A DNA stretch of 64,000 nucleotides, taken from Chthoniobacterales bacterium. Its GTDB lineage: Bacteria > Verrucomicrobiota > Verrucomicrobiia > Chthoniobacterales > JACTMZ01. The first letter of the stretch is position 1; every line of letters starts with the position of its first letter. The stretch is from NCBI GenBank assembly GCA_044359955.1, contig JBIKLF010000003.1, forward strand, positions 3,218 through 67,217, written 5' to 3'. The notes under the pieces were generated by a model, which was given only the letters and a program-made list of their open reading frames with translations, ran no database searches and was not told the origin of the DNA. Positions 4,342-42,025 of the stretch are shown piece after piece. The position numbers were made by a program, and so were the translations under genes.

Positions 4342-4364
4342 GGGGAGAGGGGGGGAGAAGAGAG

Positions 4365-4668
4365 GGCGGAGGGTTGAACCGGAGGCCTGCGCAAGCAGGG
4401 CGGAGATAGCCCTTGGGCAAACTTGAAGGCTGAGTGAGGTTGTAGCGGCGGTCTGTGACCGCCGGAATATGGAGGAAGAGAAAAGAAAAAAAGGCGGAGG
4501 GCTGAACCGGAGGCCTGCGCAAGCAGGGCGGAGATAGCCCTTGGGCAAACTTGAAGGCTGAGTGAGGTTGTGGCGGCGGTCTGTGACCGCCGGAGCATGG
4601 AGAAAAAAAAGAGAGGGAGAGGGCGGAGGGTTGAACCGGAGGGCTGTGCAAGCAGGGCGGAGATGGTC
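4365..4668. repeat. tandem repeat: 102-nt structured unit at 128-129 bp period (4365-4466, 4493-4594; partial third copy 4622-4668)
   Basis: Copies 1 and 2 differ at 2 of 102 nt. The unit contains CCTGC-GCAA-GCAGG (GNRA-type loop) and CGGCGGTC-TGT-GACCGCCG hairpins. Spacers are A/G-rich 26-mers. Confidence 0.85.
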
Positions 4669-4698
4669 CCTGAGCCGTATCCATGCAGTTGAAGACGT

Positions 4699-4906
4699 AA
4701 TAAAAGCGCGGCTTGGCTCGGTTTGTCCAGGGGGCACGGCCGTCCCGGCCGTGTTGTTTGATGTTGTTTGATCGTGACGGGCGGGACGCCCGTGCCCCTT
4801 GGCCACGTGCCAACGCGCTCACCAAATAGTGAGTCAACTCTCGCCCAGGCGCGCCTCTATGGCAGCGCCGGAAAGGGCGGAATGTTTTGCATGGTTACGG
4901 CTTAGG
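4699..4906. repeat. dispersed intergenic element, module B (4699-4835) plus module C (4840-4906), copy 1
   Basis: Near-identical to 16516-16642 (B) and 16817-16883 (C). B holds hairpins CACGGCC..GGCCGTG and ACGGGCG-GGA-CGCCCGT, enclosed by GGGGCACGG...CCGTGCCCC. Confidence 0.8.
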
Positions 4907-5014
4907 CAAACTTGAAAGCTGAGTGAGGGGCGGAGTCAGAGAAAGTGGCACGGGCATTGGCCCGTGAGGGGCGGTCGTCATCGGCAGGATGCCGATGCCA
5001 CTTTAAGATTCCGT

Positions 5015-5137
5015 ATGGCTGCCTCGCATGGATTGGTCGCCGGGGCGACCTTTCCTGGGGTGGCTTCGCTTGTCGAGGGTTCGAGTTCGCCATGCTGTGG
5101 ATGGCTGCCTCGCATGGATTGATCGCCTGTGGCGATC
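5015..5137 (-). repeat. two decoy copies of the tRNA-Gln 3' end (5015-5034, 5101-5120), each abutted by a hairpin (5035-5050, 5121-5137)
   Basis: ATGGCTGCCTCGCATGGATT occurs three times at 85-86 bp spacing; the third copy (5186-5205) is the genuine tRNA end. Hairpins are GGTCGCC-GG-GGCGACC and GATCGCC-TGT-GGCGATC. Confidence 0.85.
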
Positions 5138-5186
5138 TTTCCGAGAGTGACCGTGTATTGGAGACACGAGTCCGCCCTGCTTCGCA

Positions 5187-5260
5187 TGGCTGCCTCGCAT
5201 GGATTCGAACCATGACACACAGATCCAGAATCTGCAGTGCTACCGTTACACCACGAGGCA
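5187..5260 (-). tRNA. tRNA-Gln(CTG)
   Basis: Acceptor TGCCTCG/CGAGGCA (U1:A72, G73), anticodon stem GCAGA/TCTGT with loop TTCTGGA, T-arm CATGG-TTCGAAT-CCATG, encoded CCA. Confidence 0.9.
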
Positions 5261-5557
5261 TTAAAGAAACTTCCATTATAGGCGCGGGGTGGGGAATTTC
5301 AACCTTTGTAAGGGGGGCCAACAATGTTCGCAAAAGACATTTTCAACTTGGTGCACCGGGTTTGGTGCATCATGGATTGTCCACGGTGAAGTTTGCCTGC
5401 CGCCAGTGCACGCAGCGGTTCGAGGTTGATGACTCTTGGCCGGGCGGTCAGGTAGATCGTCCTACCTCCGGCGGGGTTGTCATCCTCCCGCAAGCGCCGG
5501 TCGATCCGCCCGTGGCGAACGTTGTGGTCCCCGCGCGCGGGCGTGGGGCGGCAGGGC

Positions 5558-7482: not shown

Positions 7483-9082
7483 AGAAAAGCTGAACACACG
7501 GGCGGCGGGCATCGTCGCGCTGGCCGTCATGCTGAGCCGCGTGCTCGGGTTGGTGCGCGAGTTGATCTTCGCCGCGCTCTTCGGCGCGGGCCGGGGGATG
7601 GATGCCTACATCACGGCGTATCGGGCGCCGAATTTGCTGCGCGATTTGTTTGCCGAGGGGGCGTTGTCGGTGGCCTTTGTTACGGTGTTCTCCAAGCTCG
7701 GCGTGGAAAAAGGCTATGAGGCTTCGTGGGAGTTGGCGCGCAAGATGGCGACGATGGTTCTCGTGTTCATGTCCTTCGTGACCTTGCTTGGGATTATTTT
7801 CGCGCCGGCGCTGATTGCGGTGCTCGCGCCGGGATTCGACGCGGAGAAGTCCGCCTTCGCGACGGAGCTGACGCGCATCATGTTCCCCTTTATCTTGATG
7901 GTGTCCCTGGCGGCGCTGGTCATGGGCATGCTCAATTCGCGCAATGTCTTCGGCGTGCCGGCCCTGGCCTCGAGTTTCTACAACCTAGGCTCGATCTTCG
8001 GCGGAGTGAGTCTGGCGTGGTGGATCGATCCGACGTTCGGTCCGCGGGCGCTGATCGGCATGGCCATTGGCACCCTGCTCGGCGGTTTTTTGCAATTGGC
8101 CGTGCAGATCCCGAGCCTCAAGAAGGTCGGGTTCACCTTCCACTTCGACTTCGGTTGGCGCGACGAGCAGGTGAAGCGCGTGTTGTGGCTGATGCTGCCG
8201 GCGGTCATTGCGGCCAGTGCGGTGCAGATCAATGTGATGGTCAATAGCATCTTTGCGTCCTTCCTCGGCGACGGCGCGGTGAGTTGGCTTTCGTATGCGT
8301 TCCGCCTCATGCAGTTGCCGCTCGGCATTTTCGGTGTGGCGGTGGCGACGGTGACCTTGCCGGCGGTGGCGAAGATCGCGGCGGGCGGCGACATGGCGCA
8401 TTTCCGCGAGACGCTGGCCAAGGCGATCCGGTTGGCGCTGTTCCTCACGCTGCCGGCCACGATCGGATTGATGATGATGAGCGGCGAGATCATCGGGTTG
8501 ATTTACGAGCGGGGGAAGTTCACCGCGGATGACACCTTGCAGACGGGGGCGGCGTTGCAATTTTACGCGGTCGGGCTGATGGGCTACGCGTGCATCAAGG
8601 TGCTCTCGCCGGCGTTCTACGCGCTGGACCGCAAGTGGACGCCGATGCTGGTGACGTTTTTCGGGATCGGGCTGAATATCGCGCTCAATTGGCTGCTGAC
8701 CTTCCGTCTGGGGATGGGGCACAAGGGGTTGGCGCTGTCGACCGGGCTGGTGGCGACGATCGACTTTTTCATCCTCTATTTTCTGATGCGGCGGGCGGCG
8801 GGAGGGATGGAGACGTTCAAGGTGGTGGGATCGTGTGGCCGGATTGTGGTGGCGGCGGCGGGGTTGGCCGCGGTGGTGCTGGTCGGGCGGGAGTGGCTGG
8901 CGCCGTGGCTGACGTCGGTGTCGTTGGTTGACCGGTTGTGGTCGTTGCTGGCGATCATTGGCGCGGCGGCGGTGGTTTATTTTGCGCTTTGCGCTTTGTT
9001 GCGCGTCGAGGAGGCGCGGGAGGCGTTGGCGTTGATCAGGCGGAAGATTTCGCGGCGGGGGATGGCTTCGCCGGGGGCGTGA
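7475..9082 (+). CDS. murJ: lipid II flippase MurJ/MviN
   Basis: ATG 7475 is in frame within listed ORF 6836..9082. From there the protein has a typical MurJ N-terminus (LSRVLGLVRELIFAALFGAG, MDAYITAYRAPNLLRDLFAEGALSVAF) and is polytopic. The upstream 213 codons are an Arg-rich overlap with tsaC. Confidence 0.9.
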   Translation: MAKEKLNTRAAGIVALAVMLSRVLGLVRELIFAALFGAGRGMDAYITAYRAPNLLRDLFAEGALSVAFVTVFSKLGVEKGYEASWELARKMATMVLVFMSFVTLLGIIFAPALIAVLAPGFDAEKSAFATELTRIMFPFILMVSLAALVMGMLNSRNVFGVPALASSFYNLGSIFGGVSLAWWIDPTFGPRALIGMAIGTLLGGFLQLAVQIPSLKKVGFTFHFDFGWRDEQVKRVLWLMLPAVIAASAVQINVMVNSIFASFLGDGAVSWLSYAFRLMQLPLGIFGVAVATVTLPAVAKIAAGGDMAHFRETLAKAIRLALFLTLPATIGLMMMSGEIIGLIYERGKFTADDTLQTGAALQFYAVGLMGYACIKVLSPAFYALDRKWTPMLVTFFGIGLNIALNWLLTFRLGMGHKGLALSTGLVATIDFFILYFLMRRAAGGMETFKVVGSCGRIVVAAAGLAAVVLVGREWLAPWLTSVSLVDRLWSLLAIIGAAAVVYFALCALLRVEEAREALALIRRKISRRGMASPGA

Positions 9083-9111
9083 GGCTGAGGCGTCCGGCGG
9101 TCATATCAGTT

Positions 9112-9129
9112 GGTCGCCTGGGGGCGACC
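9112..9129. repeat. REP-like hairpin GGTCGCC-TGGG-GGCGACC between convergent genes
   Basis: The minus strand reads GAGACAGGTCGCCCCCAGGCGACCAA, sharing both flanks with the hairpin in the tRNA-Ser units. No T-run, so it is not a canonical intrinsic terminator. Confidence 0.6.
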
Positions 9130-9221
9130 TGTCTCGCCAAGCCTCGGCTGACCGCCGCTACAAGTGGTCATCAGAAACGGACGTCGCCGGGGATCCGCAC
9201 ACGGCGGACAGGCTGGCGACG

Positions 9222-10193
9222 CTACAGGCGGAGGCGCTCGCGGACCCAGCGGGCGATTTGTTCGGCGTCTTGGGCGGCCGGGGTGAGCTCGGGGGCGGAT
9301 GAGCTGACGGGGTCGAGGGCGGGGAAAAAGTTGCGGGCTTTCCAGACGTGTGCGCCGGGGCGGTAGGGGCCGACTTGGCAGGGGTCGCTCCACGTGTGGA
9401 TGGCGAGAAGTTTGTCAGTCACGGCGGCGGCGAGGTGCATGGGACCGCTGTCGACGCTGACGACGAACGCGGCATGGCGCAGGAGCCAGAGGAGTTCGGT
9501 GAGGCTGGTGCGGTTGAGGAGGTTGGTCACGTTGGGCGGGAGGCCGGGGACTTCGAGGCCGGTGCGGCCGACGAGGACAATCGGAAAATCGACGGCGCGG
9601 CAGAAGGCGGTGACGGATTCCGGCGCAAGCGATTTGCCGCGGCCGCGGGAGAAGGGGTGGAAGACGAGGAAGGGTTCGGCGGGGATGGATTCCGACGGGC
9701 GGTCGCCCTCGGGCAGGGCGAACTCGGGTGGTCCGACGAGCGTTGCGCCGGTGGCGGCCGCGAGCGCGAGGTAGCGTTCGACGGCGTGGGCTTTCGGGTC
9801 GACGGAGATGGTTTTGGTCTGCACGAAGCGCGCGCCTTCGCGGGCGTCGGAGAGCCCGATGACCGGCACGCCGCGGAAGGCGCGGGCCACGAGGGCGGTG
9901 CGGAGGAGGCCTTGGAAGTCGAGGATGAGGTCGGGTGGGGGCTGCTGCTTTAAGGCGCGCCGCCAACGGCCGAAGCGCAGCCATCCTGGCAGTCCGCGGA
10001 AATCGGCGCGGGGGAAAATGAGGGTCTCATTGAGGTGCGGGTTGCCTTCGAGGAGCGGGGCCCACTCGGGATTGACCATCCAGGTGAGGTGGGCGTCGGG
10101 AAATTTCGCCCGCAGGGCGGCGACGGCGGGCAGGGTGTGGACGATATCGCCGAGGGAACTCGGCTTGAGCACGAGAAGGCGCCCCGGATTCAT
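9222..10193 (-). CDS. glycosyltransferase family 9 (LPS heptosyltransferase-like)
   Basis: ATG 10193 within listed ORF 9222..10832. N-terminus MNPGRLLVLKPSSLGDIVHTLPA is typical of GT9. ATGA overlap with the upstream gene. Confidence 0.8.
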   Translation of the reverse strand: MNPGRLLVLKPSSLGDIVHTLPAVAALRAKFPDAHLTWMVNPEWAPLLEGNPHLNETLIFPRADFRGLPGWLRFGRWRRALKQQPPPDLILDFQGLLRTALVARAFRGVPVIGLSDAREGARFVQTKTISVDPKAHAVERYLALAAATGATLVGPPEFALPEGDRPSESIPAEPFLVFHPFSRGRGKSLAPESVTAFCRAVDFPIVLVGRTGLEVPGLPPNVTNLLNRTSLTELLWLLRHAAFVVSVDSGPMHLAAAVTDKLLAIHTWSDPCQVGPYRPGAHVWKARNFFPALDPVSSSAPELTPAAQDAEQIARWVRERLRL

Positions 10194-26964: not shown

Positions 26965-27492
26965 GAAGCAACCTAAATACTGGAGCTTGCCGGCGAACTG
27001 TCAACAAAGTGCACGTCGGACGATTGCCATGAGGCTACACTGGAGACTGTTAGCATCTGGAAAACATCACGAGCCAGCTATGTTGCCGGCCCGCCGCGCT
27101 CTGTTACATTGTCTTCGAGAGTATCCAAAGCATTGGCTATCTCGTTCCCTGCACGTCCGTGATGACTGGTCTGGCGCTCGGTTACTTAGTCAACCAATTG
27201 TGATTCCTGTTTCCGACTTTTTTCGGATTCAGTCTTTTCCAGAAGGTGCTCACGGGGTTTTGCCCGCTAGAGAGGAGTCTGATCAGGGCGGGAGTGGGTC
27301 AGGCTGCGAAGCATTGCAAGGAAATGTTCTGGAGGTCACAGACCGCCGCTTGTCTATTTGCTATGATATTATTCTCGATGTCTTGGGGCTGAGTAGCCCG
27401 GAGGAGCGGCTATGCCGGGAGGCATGTTCCCCGGCAACGGATCTTAGCGGCGGTTCGGTCACGACTCGGGCTGGGCTTGTTTAGGTGGCTCA

Positions 27493-36037: not shown

Positions 36038-37382
36038 CATAGGCGTTAACCTAATATCTTGCATGTTGAGGTGGCGGGCCGCAGGGTGGCGGAGTGAAAA
36101 CCGACAGTCTTCCCGAGGATTGGAACATCGTGCGTGGGTGGTTGCCCGAGGAGCTCAATGCTGGCGCGCGTCAGCATGGATTCCTGCAGCGGGCTCGAGG
36201 GCTGCAGGAAGCCGAAACGTGGCTGCGGCTGTTTCTGATGCATGTCGTGGGCGGCCTCTCGCTACAGCAAACCATCGTGCGCGCCGAAGAGTTGGGGCTG
36301 GCCAAGATCAGCGCCGTGGCGCTCTTCAAACGGCTTGGCAAGGCCGAGGCTTGGCTGCGGTCTCTGTGCTCTCACCTGCTGGAAGAGCAAAGACGGCGGC
36401 TTGGACTTCACCGGTGGCCTTGGAAAAAGCGTTTGCGGGTCATCGATGCCACCACCATCCAGGAACCCGGCACCAGCGGCACCAAGCTGCGCCTGCACTA
36501 CAGCATCCAGTTGCCAACCTTGGCGTGTGACCATTACGAACTGACCGATATCCACGGCGGGGAAAAACTCGGGAGATTTTCCTTTGCCCCGGGCCAATGG
36601 GTCTTGGTGGACCGCGGTTACAGTCACAGGCGGGGTGTGGCGCACGTCTTGGACGAGGGAGCCGAAGTGGTGATGCGATGGAACGCGGCGCTCTTCCCGC
36701 TGGAAGATGAACAAGGCAAGGCGTTCAAGCCCCTGCCGTGGGTGCGCAAGTTGCCGGCGCGGCGCTCCGCGGAGATTAAGCTCTTCTTCCAGCACGACTC
36801 CCGGCGGCATGCCGTGCGGCTTTGTGCGTTGCGCAAGTCGAGGATGGCCACGGAGAGAACCTTGCGAAAAATGGCCGACAAGGCGCGGCGCAACGGGACC
36901 AAAGAGATGGACGCCACCAGCCGCAAGCTGGCTGGTTATGTGTTGATCCTGACCACCATCGACGGGCCAGAGTTGTCCACAAGCCAAGTGCTGGAAATCT
37001 ACCGCTACCGCTGGCAGATCGAGTTGTATTTCAAGAGGCTCAAGAGCCTGCTTGACGCCGGGCACATGCCCAAAAGCAACGACGCCTCGGCCAAAGGGTG
37101 GATGCAGGCCAAAATGCTTTCGGCTCTGCTGCTGGAGCGAATCATGTTGGAGGCCGGTTTTTTTTCCCCCTGGGGATACCGCCTGCCAGAAGAGCCAGTG
37201 GGCGCTACTGGTCGAGACCAGAGACTGCCTCAAGCAAATCGTCGCTCCGGGGTTGCTGCTGGGTGACTTGATCGCCGCAGGCCAGAGGCTGAAAAAGCTC
37301 TTGGCCATCCGCCGCAAGAAGCGCCCGATGCAAATGACGGGATTGGGGTGTCTTGTTGATGCTCGTTAGGTTAACGCCTATG
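36038..37382 (+). mobile_element. IS4-family insertion sequence, 1345 bp, complete ends
   Basis: Perfect 17-bp terminal inverted repeats CATAGGCGTTAACCTAA (36038-36054; reverse complement at 37366-37382). 11-bp direct target duplication GGGTGTTGGTG (36027-36037 and 37383-37393). Confidence 0.9.
36094..37266 (+). CDS. IS4-family DDE transposase
   Basis: DDE_Tnp_1-type motifs VIDATTI, VLVDRGY and YRYRWQIELYFKRLK (Y-2-R-3-E-6-K). The C-terminal tail may continue in frame +1 to 37369 (see findings). Confidence 0.85.
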   Translation: MKTDSLPEDWNIVRGWLPEELNAGARQHGFLQRARGLQEAETWLRLFLMHVVGGLSLQQTIVRAEELGLAKISAVALFKRLGKAEAWLRSLCSHLLEEQRRRLGLHRWPWKKRLRVIDATTIQEPGTSGTKLRLHYSIQLPTLACDHYELTDIHGGEKLGRFSFAPGQWVLVDRGYSHRRGVAHVLDEGAEVVMRWNAALFPLEDEQGKAFKPLPWVRKLPARRSAEIKLFFQHDSRRHAVRLCALRKSRMATERTLRKMADKARRNGTKEMDATSRKLAGYVLILTTIDGPELSTSQVLEIYRYRWQIELYFKRLKSLLDAGHMPKSNDASAKGWMQAKMLSALLLERIMLEAGFFSPWGYRLPEEPVGATGRDQRLPQANRRSGVAAG

Positions 37383-37653
37383 GGGTGTTGGTGGTGCCGG
37401 GTTTGGTGCGGGGCTGGTGAGCTAAAAGTTTCGCCTAAATGGCTCCACGTTTTTCGGGCTCAAGCCAATTGAAGGGGCGATCGGCCCGGGCCTGCGCAGT
37501 TATTTGGTTCAACGGAGGCCAAATTTTCGCAGCATTCGCAGCAAAGACGACTCAACTACACTCAACTTGGCTTAACTCATTGACGGTCCAGCCGGTCTTG
37601 TAAACACTTGGAAATGAAGCGTTAACAGTGTCTTTTTTGGCAGAGGCAAAAAA

Positions 37654-37741
37654 CGGTGAGGGAGGGATTCGAACCCTCGGTAGCCTTTTGGACTACGGAG
37701 CTTTAGCAAAGCTCTGCTTTCGACCACTCAGCCACCTCACC
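37654..37741 (-). tRNA. tRNA-Ser(GCT)
   Basis: Acceptor GGTGAGG/CCTCACC, anticodon stem GAGCT/AGCTC with loop TTGCTAA, long variable arm CGTAGTCCAAAAGGCTACC, T-arm GAGGG-TTCGAAT-CCCTC. CCA is not encoded. Confidence 0.9.
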
Positions 37742-37885
37742 AGAATTGAAGGGGAAAATTGCCATCGTCGGCAGGCGGCGTCAATGCCGGTTGCACAAGA
37801 AGTTGGCGTTGCGCCCTCCGCGGAGGACAAAGGCAGGGGTGCCCGAGGCCAAAGGAAGAAGGCGACGCAGGAGTGGAGGGGGTGC

Positions 37886-39283: not shown

Positions 39284-39329
39284 AGAGATCCGACGGTCAT
39301 AGACCGCCGCTGCAAGTTGGGGAAGGGAA

Positions 39330-41728: not shown

Positions 41729-41820
41729 GGAAGGGTGGCTGAGTCCGGTTTAAGGCACTCGACTCGAAATCGAGCGTGGGGTTAAACCCACCGTGGGTTC
41801 GAATCCCACCCCTTCCGCCA
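41729..41820 (+). tRNA. tRNA-Ser(CGA)
   Basis: Acceptor GGAAGGG/CCCTTCC, anticodon stem CTCGA/TCGAG with loop CTCGAAA, long variable arm CGTGGGGTTAAACCCACC, T-arm GTGGG-TTCGAAT-CCCAC, G73, encoded CCA. Confidence 0.9.
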
Positions 41821-42025
41821 ATCCGCCGCAGGCGGCTTGAAACATCCCGGTGGGATGAAGAACGCAGTTCGAGCCGGAGACAGGTCGCCGGAGGCGACCA
41901 ATCCCACCCCTTCCGCCAATCCGCCGCAGGCGGCTTGAAACATCCCGGTGGGATGAAGAACGCAGTTCGAGCCGGAGACAGGTCGCCGGAGGCGACCAAT
42001 CCCACCCCTTCCGCCAATCCGCCGC
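41821..42025 (+). repeat. two perfect 98-bp tandem units plus a 28-nt partial third, each re-creating the last 19 nt of tRNA-Ser(CGA)
   Basis: AATCCCACCCCTTCCGCCA occurs at 41802-41820 (genuine), 41900-41918 and 41998-42016. Spacers 41821-41899 and 41919-41997 are identical. Confidence 0.9.

Follow-up and report, generated by a model that had tools for sequence, protein, structure and literature searches.

Hairpin-ended units behind tRNA genes of Chthoniobacterales as a probable family of miniature mobile cassettes

Why should an intact tRNA gene be followed by two further copies of its own 3' end, each set directly behind a short hairpin, and did these copies arise in place or were they brought in? 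The question is raised by the tRNA-Gln(CTG) locus of a Chthoniobacterales bacterium, which lies in a 64,000-nucleotide stretch of DNA analysed here as a whole (the window). The locus has the following features, in window coordinates; in sequences below, a caret marks a point of insertion.

5275 to 5302, minus strand: promoter-like site TTGAAA-16-TATAAT, just upstream of tRNA-Gln (11 of 12 consensus positions matched; consensus match only)
5187 to 5260, minus strand: intact tRNA-Gln(CTG) gene (ARAGORN; Rfam tRNA, 58.9 bits; sequence)
5121 to 5205, minus strand: cassette 1, 85 nt, running from A58 through CCA into a body, GGAAA and a terminal hairpin (sequence)
5174 to 5190, minus strand: left hairpin H1 of cassette 1, GCCATGC-GAA-GCAGGGC, which takes in the discriminator base and CCA (consensus fold of six Gln cassettes)
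5121 to 5137, minus strand: terminal hairpin H3 of cassette 1, GATCGCC-ACA-GGCGATC, perfect (sequence)
5035 to 5120, minus strand: cassette 2, 86 nt, on the same plan as cassette 1 (sequence; 120 bits against a covariance model of Gln cassettes)
5035 to 5050, minus strand: terminal hairpin H3 of cassette 2, GGTCGCC-CC-GGCGACC, perfect (sequence)
5015 to 5034, minus strand: last 20-mer (A58 to CCA and one further T), taken to be the original tRNA-Gln 3' end after its displacement (exact 20-mer match)

On the minus strand the 20-mer AATCCATGCGAGGCAGCCAT, which comprises tRNA-Gln positions A58-A76 and one T, occurs exactly three times, at 5186-5205, 5101-5120 and 5015-5034, with periods of 85 and 86 nt, and its second and third copies each directly follow GGAAA and a perfect 7-bp hairpin. 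The first-pass annotation of this DNA had reported the three 20-mers, their periods and the hairpins before the downstream copies, and had placed the junction at T-loop position G57/A58; the present analysis bears this out, the copies beginning at A58. It had also judged the matches unlikely to arise by chance, and none are expected, since 100 shuffles with up to three mismatches allowed yielded no match. What it missed is that each inserted cassette has the hairpin as its right end. On the tRNA body, the 20-mer is read here as imported, the last 19 nt of the gene (A58-A76, 5187-5205) being supplied by cassette 1 on this reading, and the last 20-mer as the displaced original. Downstream of the promoter-like site, no terminator-like site was seen on the minus strand through the Gln units. 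Between the aldehyde dehydrogenase gene and tRNA-Gln, where repeats and no gene had been noted before, none was called; three tandem repeats of 128 bp and a number of inverted repeats lie in this gap.

Related features are found in the window at tRNA-Ser(CGA) and at a site with no tRNA nearby.

41729 to 41820, plus strand: tRNA-Ser(CGA), with the same hairpin/A58 junction as tRNA-Gln
41802 to 41997, plus strand: two identical 98-nt Ser-type cassettes (sequence)
41867 to 41875 and 41965 to 41973, plus strand: internal GTTCG/AGCC junctions of the Ser cassettes
41883 to 41899 and 41981 to 41997, plus strand: H3 hairpins of the Ser cassettes
41998 to 42025, plus strand: displaced tRNA-Ser(CGA) 3' end with 9 nt of trailer (28-nt repeat)
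9106 to 9149, minus strand: solo hairpin module AGCC..GAGACA plus GGTCGCC-CCCA-GGCGACC (+AACTGA), inside the loop of a terminator-like hairpin

At tRNA-Ser(CGA) the sequence GGTCGCC-GGA-GGCGACC/AATCCC occurs twice with a period of 98 nt, the repeat being 28 nt long; the Gln layout had been likened to that of tRNA-Ser, and the hairpin/AATCC junction is indeed the same at both. Orthologous loci hold three (L132) and four (L128) of these cassettes where the window has two, a change in copy number that needs only unequal crossing-over. The solo module (module size 40-46 nt) lies between two convergent genes. Its host loop reads GCGGCGGTC-TAT-GACCGCC, a target duplication is absent, and the flanks (GGTC/../TAT) have no overlap sequence in common with AATCC. 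At the corresponding site of L189 the hairpin is uninterrupted (GCAGCGGCGGTC-TAT-GACCGCCGGA) and constitutes an empty site, and L191 has neither the terminator-like hairpin nor the module; a bare module inserted in a non-tRNA loop is demonstrated here. Of the five perfect hairpins of the H3 type in the window, four abut A58 of a tRNA 3' copy. No further Gln-type copy was found in the window with the covariance model of Gln cassettes, and the other three tRNAs of the window are without a unit. The window genes, according to Pfam lists that cover most of it, are housekeeping genes with the exception of one DDE transposase (DDE_Tnp_1 IS, 36094-37266), and no recombinase, fitting transposase or HUH gene appears in this gene content.

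The terminal hairpin H3 is GC-rich and of 7 bp, with the consensus G[G/A]TCGCC-N2-4-GGCGA[C/T]C, and its arms covary: GATCGCC is found with GGCGATC, GATTGCC with GGCAATC and GGTTGCC with GGCAACC, the four arm variants all being complementary. Compared with the form GGTCGCC with GGCGACC, H3 of cassette 1 shows one compensatory change, from G-C to A-T. In the consensus fold of six Gln cassettes there is one double change in H3, and in H1 (GCCATGC-GNA-GCATGGC), of which the CCA end is part, double changes preserve three pairs. A GGA 5' of the terminal hairpin is able to pair with a TCC 3' of it. The cut is flush with H3, the left end bears only the variable H1, and the insertion target is GTTCG^ or GTTCA^ in every tRNA case and GGTC^ at the solo site. 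Folded as single-stranded DNA and set against shuffles, unit 1 gives z = -4.0 and the Ser unit a less strong z = -2.3, and the fold of unit 2 is not clearly below its shuffles (z = -1.65, 11 of 200 shuffles being equally good).

The same anatomy is demonstrated in other genomes and in metagenomes. A scan of 185,579 species genomes with the pattern GGATTGRTCGCC-N2-4-GGCGAYC gave at least 119 matches, most of them coding-sequence coincidences such as conserved enzyme motifs; among the matches listed, the real cases are five MAGs (four with the label Chthoniobacterales, one with Chthoniobacter flavus), the hairpin lying just 3' of tRNA-Tyr, Ala, Ser(GGA), Ser(TGA) and Asn. A stricter metagenome scan, for the hairpin plus AATCC, returned 54 loci, about 40 of them with the hairpin 43-400 nt downstream of tRNA-Ser(CGA/TGA/GGA/GCT), Gln, Asn or Ala. 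About 40 loci from metagenomes and MAGs have the hairpin/AATCC junction, those with a name all being Chthoniobacterales; the tRNAs in front of it are those for Ser (four anticodons), Tyr, Gln, Asn and Ala. As hairpin and AATCC were a condition of both scans, the spread and the hairpin diversity are lower bounds, and Flagellimonas L052 hints at an extension to Bacteroidota. In one of the five MAGs (L094) the contig begins inside an array, and its locus matches the tRNA-Asn locus of L098. Across about 434 kb of loci the hairpin stands before the AATCC of a tRNA 3' copy 50 times and occurs without it six times, most of the six being decayed copies.

Units measure 47-170 nt, with bodies of 30-120 nt. 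The 5 nt before the hairpin differ by subfamily, being AGACA for Ser and Tyr, GGAAA for Gln and Asn and CCGGA for Ala, and each subfamily stays with the same tRNA types in different genomes. The tRNA 3' repeat always starts on the left at A58, and its right edge is variable, giving 16-31 nt and running 1-15 nt beyond CCA. In several loci the downstream 3' copies have decayed, with one to four mismatches or indels, which fits relics rather than selected decoys; the term decoy used in the first-pass annotation therefore overstates function. A scan of viral contigs for the hairpin junction gave four chance matches and no phage link, Rfam 15 at gathering and permissive thresholds (E <= 10) returned only tRNA matches, with the units matching nothing, and a search of the literature by concept and by literal junction sequences found no description of these units. 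The cassettes are apparently an undescribed family of miniature mobile elements in the Chthoniobacterales.

Loci of tRNA-Gln were also sampled independently of the hairpin, via homologues of the adjacent shikimate kinase labelled Chthoniobacterales at NCBI. In three syntenic relatives, L185 (kinase 90% identical), L186/L189 (89%) and L187/L190 (84%), tRNA-Gln(CTG) adjoins the shikimate kinase gene and is entirely without a unit: the next gene lies within about 25 nt of the tRNA, and there is neither a hairpin nor a second 3' end. Since these relatives have tRNA-Gln without any unit, a conserved and required trailer is excluded. Two units are present at tRNA-Gln in L157 (kinase 80% identical), and empty as well as filled sites are demonstrated in this way; in L191 (96%) tRNA-Gln is missing from this place, and an empty site bearing the window's own right flank was not found among the relatives examined. 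A comparison of orthologous tRNA-Gln loci had been proposed earlier, and the relatives have either no spacer or a spacer with the junction, spacers lacking the junction not being found. As a separate observation, the MAG of L185 bears a Tyr unit.

The bodies of cassettes 1 and 2 are 57% identical. That of cassette 2 is 72-76% identical to the Gln units of L130, L157 and L145, that of cassette 1 is 54-70% identical to Gln cassettes of other genomes, and the Gln 3' copies are exact in both units despite the divergence of the bodies. These identities fit two arrivals of already diverged cassettes rather than in-place duplication and drift, in line with the original suggestion that the two diverged spacers reflect separate events and not one slippage. 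Slippage or a simple tandem repeat was rejected for the Gln units on the strength of the 57% identity, near-identity being seen only in the Ser(CGA) array.

The origin of the two kinds of 3' end, imported and native, can be followed where they differ. At L143 and L168 the working tRNA-Ser(GCT) ends CACCG-TGTTTTTT, with CCA absent, and the copy behind the hairpin is AATCCCTCCCTCACCGCCATTTGCGCGCC (..CACCGCCATTTGCGCGCC); the same end and trailer are attached to the tRNA in L141, where an extra cassette is inserted adjoining the tRNA. Behind the last Gln copy of L157 stands GCCTAATGC.., which resembles the native trailer GCCTCACACC at the L185 empty site. In both comparisons (L143/L168 against L141, and L157 against L185) the proximal 3' end is element-borne and the distal copy is the native end with its trailer. 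It is by analogy with these loci, in which the distal copy keeps the native trailer, that positions 5015-5034 of the window may be read as the displaced original tRNA-Gln 3' end.

Exchange between loci is seen at L098 and L127, where an Asn-type cassette (AATCC[C/T]ACCTCAGGAGCC..GGAAA or GGAGA plus hairpin) lies exactly between the hairpin of a Ser(TGA) cassette and the Ser 3' copy, a demonstrated case of a foreign-type cassette in a locus; it is missing at five other Ser(TGA) loci (L171, L131, L142, L154 and L158). Nesting is also seen at L152, where a GGAAA unit of 47 nt follows an Ala unit. The flank of nested insertions is GGCGACC^, and the demonstrated insertion points are G57/A58 or an existing hairpin/AATCC junction.

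The Ser, Tyr and Ala cassette types are, on sequence grounds, built on a smaller module. GTTCG/AGCC..(G)AGACA precedes the hairpin in 26 of 28 ACA-type units. At L133, two tandem copies of the promoter and tRNA-Ser(GCT), truncated at position 57, stand upstream of an intact copy; each is fused at its cut end to AGCC..AGACA and the hairpin. The younger copy reads GTTCG at the cut and AATCC.. after the hairpin, and the older, decayed copy has GTTCC and CATCC.. at these places. Given these fusions and the solo module at 9106-9149, the larger cassette bodies look like fossils of the T-arm 5' half fused to the hairpin module. A segment of the body that is the complement of the T-stem (GGTGGGAT and the like) was considered as a guide for target choice and rejected, as Ser(GCT) units carry the Tyr-type TGGAT and as the segment in L136 matches the old downstream copy and not the present tRNA; it is better read as a relic of the T-arm 5' half.

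The Gln units were probably acquired separately, as members of a Chthoniobacterales family of miniature mobile cassettes that are non-coding and site-specific and recombine at the T-loop between G57 and A58. A cassette begins with a copied tRNA 3' end, which starts at A58 and stops at the discriminator base or CCA, and continues with a structured body and a terminal hairpin. With a trans-acting enzyme and a circular or otherwise excised intermediate, recombination would occur in the T-loop between position 57 and A58, tRNA positions 1-57 would join the cassette's own 3' end so that the gene stays intact, and the original 3' end and trailer would be displaced behind the hairpin. A later cassette could enter at the same point or at an existing hairpin/AATCC junction to give an array, within which identical neighbouring cassettes may expand or shrink like any tandem repeat. 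An excised form was not observed, which counts against this reading.

The chief rival is a tyrosine integrase acting in trans from elsewhere, the units being attP-only satellites or CIME-like deletion remnants of integrase-borne islands or prophages and the hairpin a core-proximal or arm binding site. It has in its favour that a tRNA 3' repeat starting in the T-loop flanks the units, that the tRNA is regenerated and that newer units adjoin it, which is the classical signature, as in tycheposons (10.1101/2020.12.28.424599), and the imported and native 3' ends in L143 and L141 would fit attP-attB exchange. This explanation is nevertheless considered unlikely: no large element and no integrase follows the hairpin in any of about 40 loci, a crude scan of about 0.5 Mb of cassette loci for tyrosine-recombinase motifs found nothing, and double-stranded circles of 47-170 bp would be very strained. 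Furthermore, the GTTCG/AGCC junction and the solo insertion have no overlap sequence in common with AATCC, and one hairpin serves eight tRNA ends, whose right-hand core sequences share nothing. A host-selected structured trailer, in which the hairpin and second 3' end serve processing, termination or as decoy RNA and were multiplied by replication slippage, would be in keeping with the strong promoter-like site and the lack of a terminator-like site before the units, which make co-transcription probable, with the highly structured units, in which H1 sequesters the CCA end, with the VNTR-like Ser(CGA) array of two, three or four identical units, and with subfamilies that are constant by tRNA type across genomes. 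It becomes improbable in view of the three syntenic relatives whose tRNA-Gln lacks a unit, the Gln bodies that are too divergent for slippage products, the decay of downstream copies in many loci and the failure of the units to match Rfam; moreover, slippage cannot account for L143, where the 3' end and trailer of the tRNA are unlike those after the hairpin, for the Asn unit at a Ser locus or for the solo module within a terminator loop. Chance matching or faulty assembly can be practically dismissed, for only the general risk of repeat misassembly in metagenomes speaks for it, whereas zero matches are expected by chance, the window matches JGI metagenome contigs and its sequence is present in independent assemblies of two samples, and an identical design recurs in dozens of unrelated contigs.

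Other explanations were rejected outright. Reverse transcription of a mature tRNA that halts at m1A58 is incompatible with repeats that pass CCA by 1-15 nt, and fails again in that the arrays end in a 3' copy and an unrelated flank. In a CRISPR array the 'spacers' would not be homologous to each other and to units elsewhere, as they are here, nor would the repeat be a tRNA end, and no cas genes are in the Pfam lists of the window. Integron attC sites do not apply either, as the junction is GGCGACC/AATCC, with no R''/L''-L'/R' boxes and no G/TT crossover, and no integrase was found.

Williams, in 2002, reportedly set out the same traits of tRNA integration, namely the 3' repeat, the restored end and the stacking. 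As with tRNA-integrating islands, prophages, tycheposons and CIMEs, the insert is flanked by a tRNA 3' repeat that starts in the T-loop, the element supplies the tRNA-preserving end, arrivals stack at the tRNA and partial copies decay distally (10.1101/2020.12.28.424599). Direct tRNA 3' copies of 16-31 nt flank the insert at about 40 loci and the tRNA is regenerated. The cassettes differ from integrase elements in measuring 47-170 nt, in being gene-less with no integrase nearby, in having a perfect conserved hairpin flush with the crossover, one hairpin family serving at least eight tRNA species, and in having some junctions without a shared core (GTTCG/AGCC and the solo module). No overlap sequence is common to all sites, AATCC being common to hairpin/AATCC and T-loop/AATCC only, unlike GTTCG/AGCC and the solo site, and no integrase was found in or beside the element (units without an ORF, window Pfam lists and the crude motif scan). 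The logic of tRNA 3' end restoration is already known, and the novelty lies in a miniature form that has no genes and ends in a hairpin, in the one junction for many tRNAs and in the bare module.

Like IS200/IS605, their non-coding, PATE-like derivatives and REP/RAYT, the cassettes lack terminal inverted repeats, and the bare module makes no target duplication, as seen in the solo module against L189 and in the fusion of tRNA positions 1-57 to AGCC at L133; they also keep a hairpin by compensatory change, and the GGA-TCC pairing at the cut is reminiscent of the pairing of guide and cleavage site (PMC3201880, PMC5027513, PMC8266576). In the tRNA loci, though not at the solo site or at nested insertions, they insert beside a short fixed sequence (GTTCR^). 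IS608 has hairpins at both ends and is cleaved away from them (PMC3201880), and such subterminal hairpins at both ends with distant cleavage were not found in the cassettes. Unlike in the IS200/IS605 and REP/RAYT group, the target is inside an essential gene, the element brings the replaced gene end, no replication-orientation bias was seen, and no TnpA or RAYT gene was identified in the 64 kb and the genome fragments that the analysis covered. The arrays also resemble those of integron cassettes in being ordered units that end in a folded recombination hairpin, with one fixed attachment point, the newest first, and open to reshuffling, but IntI, ORFs and attC boxes are missing and the attachment point is the tRNA T-loop. 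In casposons and similar elements a direct repeat of the tRNA 3' end flanks the insert as well, whereas the cassette repeat is 16-31 nt long with a fixed left and a variable right edge and there is no Cas1; in L143 the two copies diverge after the discriminator base, so that a fill-in duplication does not explain the repeat.

The favoured enzyme is one of the HUH type, known from IS200/IS605 or IS91, which would recognise the hairpin and act on single-stranded DNA. It fits better than a tyrosine integrase, because the units (47-170 nt) are too small for comfortable double-stranded circles, the conserved hairpin structure is flush with the cut, junctions occur without shared homology (GTTCG/AGCC and the solo module) and the bare module inserts without target duplication. 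Against the HUH type stand the position of the hairpin flush with the cut and its conservation at one end only. The Gln and Ser(CGA) arrays are oppositely oriented and the GC skew of the window is positive throughout, so there is no lagging-strand rule. There is a substantial chance that a new enzyme system is hidden behind the cassettes. A more specific proposal, put forward tentatively as a possibility, is a transposition system of a new type that targets the T-loop (G57^A58), in which a trans-acting, hairpin-recognising single-stranded DNA enzyme would move the 30-45-nt hairpin module and, using an upstream tRNA T-loop as an alternative left cut, would also move composite cassettes with a spare tRNA 3' end. 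Were such a system to exist, the element could live in essential single-copy genes without killing the host, and integron-like arrays of non-coding cassettes would preserve fossil tRNA ends.

If the reading as mobile cassettes is correct, these units, at 47-170 nt with a core module of about 30-45 nt, are to our knowledge among the smallest site-specific mobile DNAs, and they target the most conserved tRNA loop, avoiding lethality by bringing the replaced gene end. A recombinase with T-loop specificity should then exist and might serve as a tool, and stacked partial tRNA ends would be explained without lost prophages. Arrays of this kind could mislead tRNA annotation, island prediction and assembly. 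Displaced ends would be dated fossils of tRNA evolution, an example being L136, where the old T-stem reads CCCCC and the present one CCCTC.

The copy of the tRNA 3' end that lies behind the hairpin can differ in sequence from the gene that it adjoins. At the tRNA-Ser(GGA) locus L136, one of the loci from other genomes and metagenome contigs compared with the window, this copy carries the T-stem strand CCCCC and the unit body contains GGGGGAT, while the T-stem of the working tRNA is GAGGG/CCCTC. The tRNA-Ser(GGA) of a further locus, L077, retains GGGGG/CCCCC. Read from these sequences, the displaced end at L136 appears to keep an older allele of the tRNA.

The window also encodes a tRNA-Ser(GCT), which has no hairpin unit and ends in CACCG-TTTTTT with no encoded CCA; a transposase ORF lies approximately 390 nt downstream of it.

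36094-37266, plus strand, DDE_Tnp_1 (IS4/IS5-type) transposase ORF
37653-37742, minus strand, tRNA-Ser(GCT)

At L133 (ERZ889217 contig, 1750-2700) the layout is a mirror image: the promoter and tRNA-Ser(GCT) are present in two tandem copies, each cut at position 57 and joined to the AGCC..AGACA-hairpin module. These truncated copies stand upstream of the intact gene, and the duplicated portion here is the tRNA 5' side.

In the closest relative (L191; shikimate kinase 96% identical), tRNA-Gln is absent downstream of the shikimate kinase gene (7500-9600), and a cytochrome b562 gene, a sigma-70 region-4 fragment and a ParE-like toxin gene are found where it would stand; the segment downstream of shikimate kinase is therefore a variable spot. 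In the window, a 128-bp repeat present three times in tandem (4356-4740, plus strand, 91% identical) takes up much of the space separating the aldehyde dehydrogenase gene from tRNA-Gln, and no further copies were found in the window or in 187 loci. On the plus strand the repeats include GCCTGCGCAAGCAGGGCGGAGA, which is similar, in inverse orientation, to the start (CCATGCGAAGCAGGGCGGACT) of the first hairpin unit behind tRNA-Gln. Immediately past the last 20-mer of the tRNA-Gln 3' end are two more palindromic structures (4942-5004 and 4724-4805), one consisting of AAAGTGGCA..TGCCACTTT around two small hairpins and the other having arms of 29 nt with 86% complementarity.

A second family of hairpins is REP-like (GCGGCGGTC-NNN-GACCGCCG) and has 7 matches on both strands of the window, where 0.18 are expected.

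4445-4465, REP-like hairpin copy
4573-4593, REP-like hairpin copy
27330-27349, REP-like hairpin copy
39290-39310, REP-like hairpin copy
9085-9170, REP-like hairpin copy between the MurJ and glycosyltransferase genes, interrupted by the solo hairpin module

Beyond the Verrucomicrobiota, three GGAA+GATCGCC-NNN-GGCGATC hairpins are found in Flagellimonas algarum (Bacteroidota; NZ_JBEVTG010000003.1, 5090-5330), in the 400 nt that follow tRNA-Arg(TCT). AATCC(T) comes after two of the three; the third is degenerate, with CATCC behind it. None is accompanied by a copy of the tRNA end, and the hairpins may be related to the module.

Each 8-kb bin of the window (1-64000) has a positive GC skew (0.055-0.19), so the entire stretch seems to belong to a single replichore.
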